DNA of 54,392 nt from an uncultured Rickettsiales bacterium (GTDB lineage: Bacteria; Pseudomonadota; Alphaproteobacteria; CAJXXZ01; CAZLVD01): NCBI GenBank assembly GCA_964563095.1, contig CAZLVD010000001.1:122494-176885 (forward strand), in the 5' to 3' direction. Below the pieces are notes generated by a model, which had not been told where the DNA came from, did not search any database, and saw only the letters and a program-made list of their open reading frames with translations. The translations under genes and the position numbers were made by a program. Shown here piece by piece: positions 7,039 to 40,052 of the stretch; within the stretch, counting starts at the first letter, position 1, and each line of letters starts with the position of its first letter.

Positions 7039-7506
7039 TTACCAGTTTAATCCAGAGAATGCCTGGTTAGATTTAGCTGTTTTATCGTTAGCTTCTTTTT
7101 GCTCCATTGCTGAACCTTTGAATTTCATAGCATCTTTGATTTCATTATATAACTTCTCTTCCATGACATGACTATCTTTACGACCGCGAGCGGCATTGAC
7201 CAAGTTTTTGATACCTCTTGATTCTGACTGTCTTTGACTAGCTTGTCTTGGAACTGTACATGTAGATCCACCCATACGTTTATATCTCAAATTCCAGAAA
7301 GGCTTAACATTTTTTAACGCTTCAAGATATGACTGTAATGCATTTAAACCATCTTGTTCTAATTTACTAAATGCTGCATATACGATATATTCTGCTTTGC
7401 TTTTTTTACCGCACATCATAACATGATTGATTAATGATGATACTTCTGCAGAATTGTATTTAAAATCAGGTTGTATTACTCTTATTTCTACTTTTCTTCT
7501 AGACAT
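7039..7506 (-). CDS. rpsG: 30S ribosomal protein S7
   Basis: 155 aa. MSRRKVEIRVIQPDFKYNS resembles the canonical S7 N-terminus. It stands alone, with no rpsL upstream and no fusA downstream. Confidence 0.9.
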   Translation of the reverse strand: MSRRKVEIRVIQPDFKYNSAEVSSLINHVMMCGKKSKAEYIVYAAFSKLEQDGLNALQSYLEALKNVKPFWNLRYKRMGGSTCTVPRQASQRQSESRGIKNLVNAARGRKDSHVMEEKLYNEIKDAMKFKGSAMEQKEANDKTAKSNQAFSGLNW

Positions 7507-7647
7507 CTATATGAAGTTTATAATAAAAACAATGTGTAATGAATATGTATATTTATAAACGCGATATTATGTTGCAAAATTACAACACCATGATGAATAT
7601 CTATTAAAATACATGTATGTATAAGCTTATTCAGTTTTCTATATATT

Positions 7648-10245
7648 ATGCTATCTTTAATGTATATGAATAACGATAATACCAGACAACTCAAGAATCA
7701 ATGGCATAATAAAATCCATTGGGATAACCTCGATACTCAGAAGCATATTATTTGCATGCTGCCACCTCCAAATGTAACAGGAAGTCTTCATATAGGTCAT
7801 GCATTAAATATTACATTGCAAGATATCAAAATGCGTTATCTATCGCTGTTTGATAAGCTGTCTCTTTGGATAGCCGGTACAGATCATGCTGGTATAGCTA
7901 CGCAATTGGTAGCTCAAAGATTATTAGCTAAAGATGGTATTGATTACAAAACATTATCAGAGACAGACTTTAAGAAATATATCGCTACTGTCAAAGATAA
8001 TCATGAATCGATAGTAAAAGATCAGGTTTTAAAAATGGATACAGTGATCAATTGGGATGCATATTGTTTTACACTTGATCCAAAAGTATGTGAATCTGTT
8101 TTTCTTACATTTAAAAAGCTTTTTGATGAAGGATTGATATATCAGGATATGCGATTGACGAATTGGGATCCTATATTGCAGACTGCATTATCAGATTTAG
8201 AAGTAGAGTATAAGACAGTATCTGGAAATTTATATTATATTGAATATCAGACAGATTTTGAATCAATCATTGTGGCGACTACCAGGCCTGAAACATTGCT
8301 AGGAGATAATGCTTTATGTGTTAACCCAGATGATGAGCGTTATAAACATTTGATAGGAGTTAAAGCATATATACCTATTACTGGAAAAGCAATACCTATT
8401 ATTGCTGATAAAGTAGCGGATATGTCATTTGGTACAGGAGTATTGAAAGTTACAGTAGCTCATGCTTTAGCTGATTTTGAATTAGGTAAAAAATATAATC
8501 TAGATTATTACAATATTATAGATAAAACAGGATGTATGATAGATGTGCCGGAAGAGTTTGTAGGATTGAGTTGCGATGATGCAAAAATCAAAATTGTAGC
8601 AAAACTAACTACTCTGAATCTTTTGAAAAAAGCAGAGACTATTAAACATCAAGTGCCTTATGGAGAGAAGAGTGGTAATAAATTAGAATGTATTTTGACT
8701 AAGCAATGGTTTATTAATACACATCCTTTGGCAGAAAAAAGCTTAGCACATTTGCATGAAATTAAATTCTATCCAGAATATTTTGAGAATATATGTAGGC
8801 AGTCATTTGAGAAAATAGAACCATGGTGTATCTCTAGACAGTTGGTATGGGGTCATCAGATACCTATTTGGTATGTAAAGCGCAAAAATATTGATAATGC
8901 TGAACAAAAAATGTTTGTAGCTAGAGATAGACATGAAGCAGAAGAGCAGGCGAAAGAGTATTTTAATGTAGATCTCGCACAATTACATATAGAACAAGAT
9001 CCTGATGTACTTGATACATGGTTTTCATCAGCTTTATGGCCTTTTGCTACACAAAATTATCCTGATAGTAATTTTCTTATGAATGATTTTTTGGTTACCG
9101 GTAAAGATATTTTATTCTTTTGGGTAGCTCGTATGATTATGATGACATTATATATGTGTAATGAGATACCATTTCGTGAAGTATATTTACATGGACTTGT
9201 AATGGATGAGCATGGTAAAAAAATGTCCAAGATGGTTGGTAATGTTTTGAATCCATTAGATATAATTCAGGAGTATAATAGTGATGTCATTAAACTAGGA
9301 TTGGTTTCAAAGTTGATACAGGGTCGTAATGTAGCTATAGGTAAGCAGCATATGGAATTAGAGCGTAATTTTCTGACTAAAATCGAGAATGCATTGAAAT
9401 ATTGTATGATGCATAAATATACTGATAATATTGATGTTATACATGAGCTTAAGGGTATAGCAAGCTTGCATTCAACTATTATTAATTGGATTATTGCTAA
9501 TATGAATCAAACTCTAAATAAAGTAGCTCATCATTTAGATATTTGGGAAATGTCAGAAGCTCTATTAGTATTGAAAGAGTTTTTCAAAAATCATTTCTGT
9601 GACTGGTTTATTGAAGCTTCAAAAATTATGATCAAGACCGATTCTGCTAAAGTTACAGTATATATCTTGCGCACGATAATGCAGAGAATATTGATTATGT
9701 TGTATCCATATGCTCCAATCAAGACACAAGAATGGTTATCATTACTGAATACACAGCTCTTATCATGGAATCAATTAGTTATCAGTAGTACGCATCAAGC
9801 GACAGATATTAAATATGCGGAAGATATTTTTGCAGTTATTTCTGAAATACGTTCATTAAAGAGTATTGGTTTTGCAAATGCAATAGAAGTATCTGATAAT
9901 TTTACGCAAACTGAAATCTCCATGATTCAAGGATTGACTAAATGTATTGTAAACTCATGGAGTGATAATCATGGTATTGTATATCATACGAGAGCTCTAC
10001 CAACTCATCAAATTAAACTCTTTACACTTAATCCTGAACAACTGCAATATATTCAAGAGAAATGTCAAAAAGATATTCTGGAACAAGAGAGGATATTAGA
10101 TATGACTCAAAAGAGATTATCGGATGAGATTTTTCTGGAAAAAGCAGATCCTCAGGTGATACATGATATGAAATTGAGAGTAAGTACATGTATAGATTTA
10201 ATAAATAATAATAAGAAGATATTAAATTTGATACAGTCATTATAA
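7648..10245 (+). CDS. valS: Valyl-tRNA synthetase
   Basis: 865 aa. Class I HIGH motif (PPPNVTGSLHIGHAL), KMSKS-type motif (GKKMSKM) and an editing-domain-sized insertion. Confidence 0.9.
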   Translation: MLSLMYMNNDNTRQLKNQWHNKIHWDNLDTQKHIICMLPPPNVTGSLHIGHALNITLQDIKMRYLSLFDKLSLWIAGTDHAGIATQLVAQRLLAKDGIDYKTLSETDFKKYIATVKDNHESIVKDQVLKMDTVINWDAYCFTLDPKVCESVFLTFKKLFDEGLIYQDMRLTNWDPILQTALSDLEVEYKTVSGNLYYIEYQTDFESIIVATTRPETLLGDNALCVNPDDERYKHLIGVKAYIPITGKAIPIIADKVADMSFGTGVLKVTVAHALADFELGKKYNLDYYNIIDKTGCMIDVPEEFVGLSCDDAKIKIVAKLTTLNLLKKAETIKHQVPYGEKSGNKLECILTKQWFINTHPLAEKSLAHLHEIKFYPEYFENICRQSFEKIEPWCISRQLVWGHQIPIWYVKRKNIDNAEQKMFVARDRHEAEEQAKEYFNVDLAQLHIEQDPDVLDTWFSSALWPFATQNYPDSNFLMNDFLVTGKDILFFWVARMIMMTLYMCNEIPFREVYLHGLVMDEHGKKMSKMVGNVLNPLDIIQEYNSDVIKLGLVSKLIQGRNVAIGKQHMELERNFLTKIENALKYCMMHKYTDNIDVIHELKGIASLHSTIINWIIANMNQTLNKVAHHLDIWEMSEALLVLKEFFKNHFCDWFIEASKIMIKTDSAKVTVYILRTIMQRILIMLYPYAPIKTQEWLSLLNTQLLSWNQLVISSTHQATDIKYAEDIFAVISEIRSLKSIGFANAIEVSDNFTQTEISMIQGLTKCIVNSWSDNHGIVYHTRALPTHQIKLFTLNPEQLQYIQEKCQKDILEQERILDMTQKRLSDEIFLEKADPQVIHDMKLRVSTCIDLINNNKKILNLIQSL

Positions 10246-38666: not shown

Positions 38667-39647
38667 ATGCTGAATAAAATATTGATATACTTTATATCTA
38701 TATATAGTCCTTCAGAGCTCACTTCTTCGCAGACTGGCATATCTCAAGAGCGTGCTATGCCTACCGGTAATTCTGATAATATCATACATCGTCTTACCGA
38801 GGTAGATGTATTATTATATAAATTTCAGACTGTATTTAATCTAAATATGAATAAAGAGTCATATAGAAGAGTAGCTAGCATTATACAATTACATATGACT
38901 CATGAGTATTCAAGATTCTCGTATTGGAATCATATCAGCGAATTGATTCAATATAATAGAGATATATTACGAAGTGAAGTATCAATTTTATTAAATAGTA
39001 CAGCATTAAGTATATTAATTCATGCTGATGTTATCCTATCTCTTATTGAGACAAATTGCATACAGAAGAATATTATTAATGATAAAACATTACTGTATAA
39101 AATAGCGTTTTTAATAGATCCGCAGAATAATTTATTTGCTTGTAAGCCTGCGAGTATTGTAGGAGAATTGATGAGACAATCAACAGTGCAGAGCTCGCAG
39201 CAACATCATTCAGTCTTATCATGTGAGCAGTTACATCAACATCAACAGTGCTCGCAGCAGTATAGGATGCAGTTAAAATCACATATTCTGATGAGTTATA
39301 CGTATTTGAATCATATTCATTATATTACATCTGCAGGTTATAATATACTCAATCAAAGACAAGGTAATATATGCAGTTCCGATATTTCATATGAGATATA
39401 TTTATTTATCTATAAAGCTATACATATTTTGCATGGTTTAAATTGCGATATACAGCTAAAAAAGTTTTTCTTCAGACATGATTTAGCATTATTACAAAGT
39501 TTAATGATATTACATATGTTTATTATACATATGAAAGAATGTAAGCAAATTGAATATTGTATCATTTTGGAACACATACATGGTATTTTTGAGACAAGTC
39601 CGCTATATGCTTTGTTAGATAATAATTTTAATAAAGATAAAGCTTGA
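38667..39647 (+). CDS. Hypothetical protein (326 aa) with a leader-like N-terminus and a Q/H-rich centre
   Basis: Intact ORF. N-terminus is MLNKILIYFISIYS and the central stretch is QSSQQHHSVLSCEQLHQHQQCSQQ. I recognise no family. Confidence 0.4.
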   Translation: MLNKILIYFISIYSPSELTSSQTGISQERAMPTGNSDNIIHRLTEVDVLLYKFQTVFNLNMNKESYRRVASIIQLHMTHEYSRFSYWNHISELIQYNRDILRSEVSILLNSTALSILIHADVILSLIETNCIQKNIINDKTLLYKIAFLIDPQNNLFACKPASIVGELMRQSTVQSSQQHHSVLSCEQLHQHQQCSQQYRMQLKSHILMSYTYLNHIHYITSAGYNILNQRQGNICSSDISYEIYLFIYKAIHILHGLNCDIQLKKFFFRHDLALLQSLMILHMFIIHMKECKQIEYCIILEHIHGIFETSPLYALLDNNFNKDKA

Positions 39648-39680
39648 TATTATTTGTTGAATTTGCTACTATATCTGAGT

Positions 39681-40052
39681 ATGACAGTAAATTATTTACT
39701 AAGAAAACCAAGAGCGCCTAAATCAAGAAGAGCTGATGTGCCTTTTATGGAAGGTTGTCCTCAAAAACGTGGCGTATGTATTAAAGTTACAACAACTACA
39801 CCAAAAAAGCCTAACTCAGCTAAAAGAAAAATTGCCAAGGTGAGATTAAGCAATGGTAGAGAAGTGTTAGCTTATATTCCTGGTGAAAAACATGATTTGG
39901 CTGAGCATTCTGTAGTATTAATTCAGGGCGGCGGACCTAAAGACTTGCCTGGTGTAAAATGTCGTATAGTACGCGGTGCATTGAGCTGTTCTGGTGTAAA
40001 TGCTAGAAAAAATGGTAGATCAGTTTACGGTGCTAAGAAACAAAAGAGATAA
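39681..40052 (+). CDS. rpsL: 30S ribosomal protein S12
   Basis: [11 protein letters not shown]...CPQKRGVC...[12 protein letters not shown]...KDLPGV...[10 protein letters not shown] matches S12. The ORF is open from 39654. It stands alone, without rpsG. Confidence 0.9.

Follow-up and report, generated by a model that had tools for sequence, protein, structure and literature searches.

The genes that nearly all bacteria keep together in the str-S10-spc-alpha supercluster are broken up into about 23 units, the longest of which has four genes, in the tiny, AT-rich genome of an uncultured, symbiont-type Rickettsiales bacterium (NCBI GenBank assembly GCA_964563095.1, here G000), and this architecture is very probably genuine, a real and lineage-specific collapse of operon organisation. 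The stretch of DNA at the origin of the analysis, called the window, is a single gap-free contig of 54 kb (G000:C1:122494-176885, C1, C2 and so on being the scaffolds of the assembly and G001, G002 and so on the genomes of relatives), flanked by two scaffold gaps of 100 N. A sequence-only reading of this window had described its ribosomal protein genes, together with several other deeply conserved gene pairs, as shattered to a degree that would be unusual even for extreme genome reduction. In this context, the ribosomal supercluster is a standard example of selected gene order, maintained through co-expression, translational coupling and autogenous feedback, and even symbionts with the smallest genomes normally retain it.

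The assembly amounts to 539 kb in 9 scaffolds, with about 31% GC and 30 gaps of 100 N. Its completeness is 76% by a CheckM-type estimate, compared to 84-90% for closed relatives, and its contamination about 1%. Since the closed relatives themselves score only 84-90%, the value of 76% may partly reflect reduction and divergence.

Dispersal of the ribosomal protein genes

In the window, gene identities were established by NCBIfam and Pfam profile scans of all sizeable open reading frames (ORFs), which found the genes where the sequence-only reading had placed them, gatC excepted (Table 1). Many of the ribosomal proteins (r-proteins) of the window fall under the curated NCBIfam cut-offs, being divergent yet intact. 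At the level of the whole assembly, phmmer searches with 32 E. coli K-12 proteins of the str, S10, spc and alpha operons against all six-frame ORFs recovered 31 of the 32 genes, each as a single-copy, intact ORF on C1-C5, whereas rpmJ was not detected by this search.

Five remnants are kept in canonical order and orientation, namely rpsQ-rplN-rplX-rplE, rpsH-rplF, rplW-rplB, rplV-rpsC and rpsM-rpsK, and no other adjacency of the supercluster is left. The S10 run (rpsJ-rplC-rplD-rplW-rplB-rpsS-rplV-rpsC-rplP-rpmC-rpsQ) lies at nine separate places on C1-C5, in line with the earlier remark that rpsJ has no rplC after it, rplC being on C3. From the spc run (rplN...secY), only rplN-rplX-rplE and rpsH-rplF remain, with rpsN, rplR, rpsE, rpmD, rplO and secY each alone; within the window, profile scans and phmmer agree that this operon is represented by rpsQ-rplN-rplX-rplE and the lone rpsE, as had been noted. 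The str genes are all apart as well, with tuf at C1:122591, rpsG at C1:129535, rpsL at C1:162141 and fusA, rightly reported as missing from the window, at C2:66469-68571. Their description as solitary therefore holds for their mutual separation, but less so for tuf, which keeps tRNA-Tyr and tRNA-Gly upstream. Sequence comparison matches these tRNA genes to DNA adjacent to tuf in G001, so that the arrangement is apparently common to both genomes and appears to be a kept ancestral linkage. Finally, the alpha run is broken into three separate sites, rpsM-rpsK, rpoA and rplQ (the latter on C5), which bears out the reported distance between rpsM-rpsK and rpoA; the absence of rpsD beside rpoA, listed with it, is not peculiar to this genome, as rpsD lies outside the alpha operon in G001 and G002 too. 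An alpha operon without rpsD fits Alphaproteobacteria.

Most units are bounded on both sides by non-ribosomal genes within gap-free sequence. The rpsQ-rplN-rplX-rplE remnant, for instance, has orf83 and valS on one side and three orphans and gltX on the other (Logan contig L074). The placement of the units is non-random, a span of 40 kb holding 8 of the 23 (P=0.013 by scan permutation) and 120 kb of C1 holding 13 (P=0.010). This residual regional clustering indicates that the cluster partly "exploded in place", unrelated or orphan genes being wedged between its pieces, while other pieces moved far. Several r-protein genes have thereby new neighbours: rplV-rpsC is followed by rplD, rplI stands directly upstream of rpmC, an orphan precedes rpsL, and rpsE, orf141 and rpsJ follow one another. 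Besides, new neighbourhoods of translation genes were observed in which rplA is near rplV-rpsC-rplD (C2:7512-12129), rplI adjoins rpmC (C5:44291-45155), and rplR lies about 1 kb from secE-nusG (C4:47813-50098); these may be due to chance or to weak re-clustering. At the protein level, N-terminal extensions of 45-65 residues precede the conserved domain in L5 (11336-11995), S10 (18364-18813), S5 (19757-20392) and S11 (29584-30132).

The estimated completeness of only 76% could be taken to mean that the scattered genes are paralogues, either additional or relocated, of a canonical cluster located in sequence missing from the assembly. The sequence-only reading had itself proposed a search for such a second, canonical S10-spc-alpha cluster, and none was found in the 539-kb assembly, either by phmmer or with the concatenated queries described below. 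All 31 genes found are single-copy, intact ORFs, and none is degraded, although the scattered copies would be redundant if a canonical set existed elsewhere. In addition, little genome is missing, given that closed relatives reach just 84-90% on the same measure, and it would be extraordinary for a genome of some 0.55-0.6 Mb to carry about 30 such genes twice. The paralogue explanation is thus extremely improbable.

Comparison with relatives of the order

G000 is the sole member of its family within an order of 13 species representatives, all of 0.4-0.8 Mb. Two closed relative genomes (G001 and G002) were examined in full and a third (G004) in part, while the others were covered by two concatenated E. 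coli r-protein queries of about 1,900 residues each, run against all 13 genomes. G001 (closed, 523,818 bp, 27.7% GC) possesses rpsL-rpsG-fusA and one unbroken rpsJ...rplQ cluster, G004 (closed, 589,967 bp) has rpsL-rpsG-fusA-tuf-rpsJ...secY as one run, and G002 (628,024 bp, 29.7% GC) holds the genes in six blocks, rpsM-rpsK-rpoA-rplQ being contiguous in both G001 and G002. Mapping of all r-protein genes against relatives, as had been suggested, thereby opposes the approximately 23 units of G000 to 3 to about 7 blocks in each of the 12 relatives, where S10 and spc usually form one block and, as far as each assembly allows, no genome lacks a block of 9 or more genes. Retention of the canonical cluster in closed genomes as small as 524 kb and 590 kb supports the view that the scrambling is unusual even for extreme reduction.

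Eleven of the 12 relatives have a whole S10 operon, the exception being G011, where a break between rplW and rplB leaves one block of 4 genes and another of 5. Separation of rpsL from rpsG was also recorded in G003, G007 and G011, which suggests that these three genomes represent early or intermediate stages of the break-up. Taken together, the intact cluster in relatives implies that the shattering is derived and specific to the branch of G000.

The conserved proteins of G000 are 37-55% identical to those of any relative (51-55% for EF-Tu), and pairwise identities put it at about equal distance from families f2, f3 and f5; as judged from these identities, G000 is a deep, fast-evolving lineage. 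The order probably belongs within the fast-evolving Holosporaceae group, and G000 is probably a host-associated alphaproteobacterium. A fused rpoB-rpoC gene, forming one ORF of about 2,700-2,800 codons, was seen at G000:C1:65453-73933, G001:248739-257021 and G002:110027-118162; it is therefore common to at least three families of the order and not special to G000.

Dissolution of other operons

Most universally conserved operons are dissolved genome-wide in G000, and not the ribosomal one alone. When adjacency was assessed on 170 three-way reciprocal-best-hit orthologues of G000, G001 and G002, conserved adjacencies amounted to 7-11% between G000 and either G001 or G002, compared to 22% between G001 and G002. 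Other classic operons were located in the same three genomes by E. coli queries. In this way, atp, nusG-rplKAJL-rpoBC, dnaK-dnaJ, rpsB-tsf, trmD-rplS, rpsO-truB and infC-thrS were found to be split in G000 and intact in both G001 and G002. More precisely, atpA, atpD, atpG and atpB are spread over four scaffolds of G000, and nusG-secE, rplK, rplA, rplJ and the fused rpoBC occupy five separate sites. The gatCAB and clpP-clpX groups are broken in G000 as well, whereas rplM-rpsI, rplU-rpmA, secE-nusG, tig-clpP and 16S-23S rRNA are kept as pairs. Regarding the latter, a partial 16S rRNA gene (C6:2-767) and a complete 23S gene remain linked at a distance of about 370 nt (C6:2-3908), although nearly all protein operons are dissolved.

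These results bear on the other gene pairs pointed out in the window, where all checked conserved genes lack their canonical neighbours. The partners searched for are present outside the window as single copies (fusA, dnaK and dnaA on C2, pheS on C1, gatA on C4). The observation that dnaJ is without dnaK holds, the two genes being adjacent in G001 and G002, and the separation of clpX from clpP likewise stood up to analysis. By contrast, while the separations of pheT from pheS and of dnaN from dnaA are real, they are not specific to G000: pheST is also split in G001, and dnaA is apart from dnaN in all three genomes. A comparable case is nusA-infB, split in G000 and G002. As for the gat genes, said to be 40 kb apart and devoid of gatA, gatB does stand alone with gatA on another scaffold, but the gatC assignment itself is sub-threshold.

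Authenticity of the junctions

An assembly, scaffolding or binning artefact, in which a metagenome-assembled genome (MAG) misorders short pieces or mixes populations so that a normal cluster only seems shattered, is the first alternative to consider. It finds some ground in the nature of G000, a scaffolded MAG interrupted by 30 gaps of 100 N and containing one redundant scaffold: C8 (C8:237-4079) is 100% identical to the start of C2 (C2:56-3898), with nusA and an atpG-like gene, and this duplicate is most likely an assembly redundancy. Moreover, many spacers hold two-copy tandem duplications of a kind that some merging tools produce; some of the copies are just 77-88% identical, however, and hence no merge artefacts.

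The possibility of chimeric joins, raised by the sequence-only reading, was addressed with Logan single-run contigs (runs SRR13608705 and SRR13608731), which come from a different assembler and were found by exact-protein look-up, then aligned to the window. They are collinear with the window over 5334-17506, 18005-30392, 31208-44924 and 36746-47695, at 99.96-100% identity, and so reproduce the junctions in stretches between 5.3 and 47.7 kb. The orders recovered are dnaJ, rpsG, valS, orf83, rplE..rpsQ, three orphans, gltX and rpoA for the first stretch, and rpsJ, orf141, rpsE, pheT, two permeases, dnaN, clpX, orf141 and rpsM-rpsK for the second, to which the junction of an orphan with rpsL and topA is added. 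Three of these arrangements, dnaJ-rpsG-valS, pheT-rpsE and dciA-ABC-orphan-rpsL (ABC, ATP-binding cassette transporter), were each seen in contigs of the two runs. Every break in the Logan contigs coincides with one of two tandem duplications (17908-18060 and 31116-31237), de Bruijn assemblers being expected to halt at such repeats. Since the non-canonical junctions are matched in this way, they are not an artefact of binning or merging.

Further evidence comes from the GC skew, which is uniformly positive over positions 0-170 kb of C1, regardless of which strand the genes are on and of the ten scaffold gaps in between, and thereby speaks against random chimeric joins. The skew turns from positive to negative near C1:185-190 kb (C1:185000-204141), which may correspond to a replication origin or terminus. 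Finally, an artefact would require independent misassembly at more than 20 sites without common repeats, in a genome in which every supercluster gene found is single-copy and whose contamination is about 1%. For these reasons, an artefact is considered very unlikely.

Some points nevertheless weigh against a genuine collapse of operon organisation. The Logan contigs are presumably derived from the MAG's own samples and therefore check the assembler, not the sample, and the joins at 17.5-18.0 kb and 30.4-31.2 kb, as well as all gaps of 100 N, are outside the confirmed stretches. The assembly is incomplete (76%) and carries the redundant scaffold C8. Five units, those with tuf, rplC, rplP, rplO and rpsD, have a gap close by on one side, within about 0.1-0.6 kb; beyond four of these five gaps, the sequence seen is non-ribosomal. 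To these are added two points discussed below, namely that the excess in promoter score of r-protein units is small and confounded by their higher AT content upstream (75.6% against 70.9%), and that a cause in gene content via recA, mutS or rho had to be rejected, all three being present in every genome.

Possible expression without the operons

The sequence-only reading had concluded that, with such scrambling, promoters must be new and r-protein expression balanced in a new manner, which is a reasonable inference. Matches to sigma-70-like promoters occur about once per 160 bp, i.e. at chance density (92 in 14.5 kb compared to 107+/-8 in shuffles), and intrinsic-terminator-like sites are rare. 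Good sigma-70-like matches are present directly upstream of rpsQ, rpsE and rpsJ, with little discriminating value. For the 32 r-protein units scored, the best upstream match averages 9.06 out of 12, which exceeds the mean of other conserved genes (8.74, P=0.02) and that of random windows (8.57, P=3e-4). The idea of a promoter peculiar to the r-protein units was thus not retained, as only this marginal, AT-confounded sigma-70-like excess was seen and no motif discovery was run. In the same line, Rfam at gathering thresholds, used to look for r-protein leader RNAs, returned only tRNAs in the window.

Two co-directional strings, dciA-ABC-orf326-rpsL and rpsE-orf141-rpsJ, may be candidate new mixed transcription units, as suggested by gene order. 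According to the most economical reading, each unit would be transcribed alone or within such a new mixed unit, with starts at the AT-rich, promoter-like sequences present about once per 160 bp, and r-protein stoichiometry would be set gene by gene, through promoter or ribosome-binding site (RBS) strength and turnover of unassembled protein, and not by polycistronic coupling. For a slow grower whose niche is stable and probably tied to a host, such dispersal could be tolerable. A more radical proposal is that operon-based co-expression of r-proteins has been wholly abandoned in favour of about 40 or more independently transcribed genes, each provided with a shared promoter, leader or RBS signal. 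It can only be put forward tentatively and is rather doubtful; if true, it would be the bacterial counterpart of the dispersed, regulon-style r-protein genes of eukaryotes, and would show the most conserved prokaryotic cluster to be dispensable.

Age and mechanism of the break-up

The ancestral rpsL-rpsG-fusA-tuf-S10-spc-alpha supercluster would have been broken by many rounds of intrachromosomal inversion, insertion and transposition, as local moves plus some long-range ones, fixed under weak selection. The break-up looks old, because dispersed repeats are nearly absent from G000, in which only short local tandem duplications are found, and because the GC skew is uniform; the repeats that may have driven the events would since have been lost, and the skew would have re-equilibrated over the breakpoints. 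G002, for its part, is repeat-rich. Mobile elements or dispersed repeats as present drivers were accordingly dismissed, there being essentially none in G000. Likewise, recA, mutS and rho are present in 13 of the 13 genomes of the order, so that none of them accounts for the difference of G000. Little strand bias is apparent, 52% of the conserved genes being co-oriented with the G-rich strand.

Conversely, a genuine gene order might be of recent date and still in flux, if the population is heteroplasmic or has several chromosomes and ongoing recombination keeps reshuffling that order without stable new regulation. The retention of recA, the plentiful local tandem duplications, which point to active slippage or illegitimate recombination, and the state of the genome in 9 scaffolds would be compatible with this view. 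On the other hand, G000 has no dispersed repeats on which homologous rearrangement could act, the two runs display the same order at 99.96-100% identity, and the GC skew is equilibrated over the breakpoints. Ongoing reshuffling is therefore held to be unlikely, and an old break-up is preferred.

The spacer duplications just mentioned have two copies (occasionally 3-4) of 20-170 nt with 77-100% identity, and were recorded in the window at 17908-18060, 19434-19582, 31116-31237, 50436-50579, 11192-11243 and 6559-6602, and elsewhere at G000:C2:11106-11360. That at 31116-31237 overlaps the 3' end of a comF-like gene. Such duplications suggest frequent slippage or illegitimate recombination.

Relation to known systems and significance

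With the canonical str-S10-spc-alpha supercluster, as found in E. coli, G001 and G004, G000 shares the same gene set, its presence in single copies, and short remnants in canonical order. It differs in having 23 units instead of 1-4, a longest run of 4 genes, genes on both strands relative to GC skew, and new neighbours. Its relatives, probably of the Holosporaceae group, have in common with G000 a size of 0.4-0.8 Mb, a GC content of about 30%, the fused rpoB-rpoC (G001, G002), the presence of recA, mutS and rho, a weak gene-strand bias and extensive rearrangement. They keep 3 to about 7 blocks, while G000, a separate family (37-55% identity), lacks any comparable block. Fast-evolving Holosporaceae include reduced endosymbionts of protists such as Ca. 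Cytomitobacter, Ca. Ignotibacter/Nesciobacter and Ca. Gromoviella (PMC11909080).

According to Koonin & Wolf 2008 (PMC2588523), the ribosomal superoperon is present in all sequenced bacterial and archaeal genomes, although its arrangements vary. A literature search retrieved no described bacterium with an S10-spc-alpha cluster dispersed to this degree. The nearest known analogue is Nanoarchaeum equitans, likewise a tiny host-dependent genome with dispersed clusters, but an archaeon and one with split genes. This 0.49-Mb archaeal symbiont, the subject of work by Waters et al. in 2003, has reportedly lost most operon structure, including the ribosomal protein clusters. G000 is classed as an extreme form of a known process, rearrangement and operon decay in reduced genomes, and not a new kind of system.

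In the light of these comparisons, G000 amounts to a natural knock-out of operon structure, for which sister families of equal genome size that keep the cluster serve as built-in controls, and thereby offers a rare natural test of the bacterial need for r-protein operons. Theories based on co-regulation, selfish operons and the stoichiometry of protein complexes can be tested on it, as can the way in which ribosome assembly copes without coupling. On a more practical level, lineages of this kind will be under-recovered or mis-scored by phylogenomic and binning pipelines in which the 16 syntenic r-proteins are expected on a single contig.

Genes of the window

The features of the window are listed in Table 1, tRNAs having been predicted with ARAGORN and Rfam.

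Table 1. Features of the window, with positions counted from its first nucleotide.
Feature	Position	Strand	Evidence	Context
tuf (EF-Tu)	95-1294	-	NCBIfam PRK00049, E=8e-155	apart from fusA and rpsJ; downstream of tRNA-Tyr and tRNA-Gly
tRNA-Gly(UCC) and tRNA-Tyr(GUA)	1655-1816	-	ARAGORN, Rfam	directly upstream of tuf
dnaJ	5418-6533	+	profile scan	without dnaK (C2:95248-97164)
rpsG (S7)	7039-7506	-	TIGR01029, E=3e-37	solitary; divergent from valS
valS	7648-10245		profile scan	
possible gatC (orf83, 83-aa ORF)	10597-10848	-	Pfam GatC, E=0.047, sub-threshold	unproven
rplE-rplX-rplN-rpsQ	11336-13148	-	profile scans and phmmer	4 genes, longest cluster remnant
rpoA	16572-17567	+	NF003513, E=9e-101	solitary; no rpsM-rpsK before, no rplQ after (rplQ on C5)
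tandem duplication, 75 nt x 2	17908-18060			rpoA/rpsJ spacer; Logan contigs end there
rpsJ (S10)	18364-18813	-	PRK00596, E=2e-20	without rplC downstream (C3:15756-16424)
orf141	18911-19336	-	Pfam DNA_pol3_chi, E=0.002, sub-threshold	weakly HolC-like; between rpsE and rpsJ
rpsE (S5)	19757-20392	-	TIGR01021, E=5e-38	solitary; divergent from pheT
pheT	20517-22907	+	profile scan	without pheS (C1:107833-109023)
dnaN	25927-27057	+	profile scan	without dnaA
clpX	27293-28486	-	profile scan	19 kb away from tig-clpP
rpsM-rpsK	29137-30132	+	profile scan	severed from rpoA and rplQ
rpmF (L32)	31504-31713	+	Pfam Ribosomal_L32p on Logan gene call; ORF confirmed	solitary; further r-protein gene
dciA - ABC transporter - 326-aa orphan (orf326) - rpsL	36350-40052	+		co-directional; spacers 33-62 nt; order seen in two runs
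rpsL	39654/39681-40052	+	profile scan	33 nt behind the dciA-ABC-orf326 string; followed by topA
tig-clpP	45753-48496	+	profile scan	
tig - clpP - SurA/PpiD-like gene	45753-50026	+	profile scan, compared with E. coli order	
gatB	50864-52297	-	profile scan	without gatA (C4:15406-16806) or gatC

By comparison with the E. coli order, the string tig-clpP-SurA/PpiD-like gene is, on gene order, a remnant of tig-clpP-clpX-lon-hupB-ppiD minus clpX and lon. In a collection scan, the best matches of ValS came from Sumerlaeota/BRC1 and Bdellovibrionota MAGs with 30-38% identity, Brucellaceae reaching 21-22%; valS may hence be of non-alphaproteobacterial origin, or the pattern may be an effect of the pattern-based search. 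Finally, genes for a GspE/PilB-type ATPase, a GspF/PilC-type platform protein and a 438-aa orphan (31801-36188) adjoin a ComF-family gene (30471-31175), and no pilin, peptidase or secretin gene was seen near the GspE/GspF-type genes.

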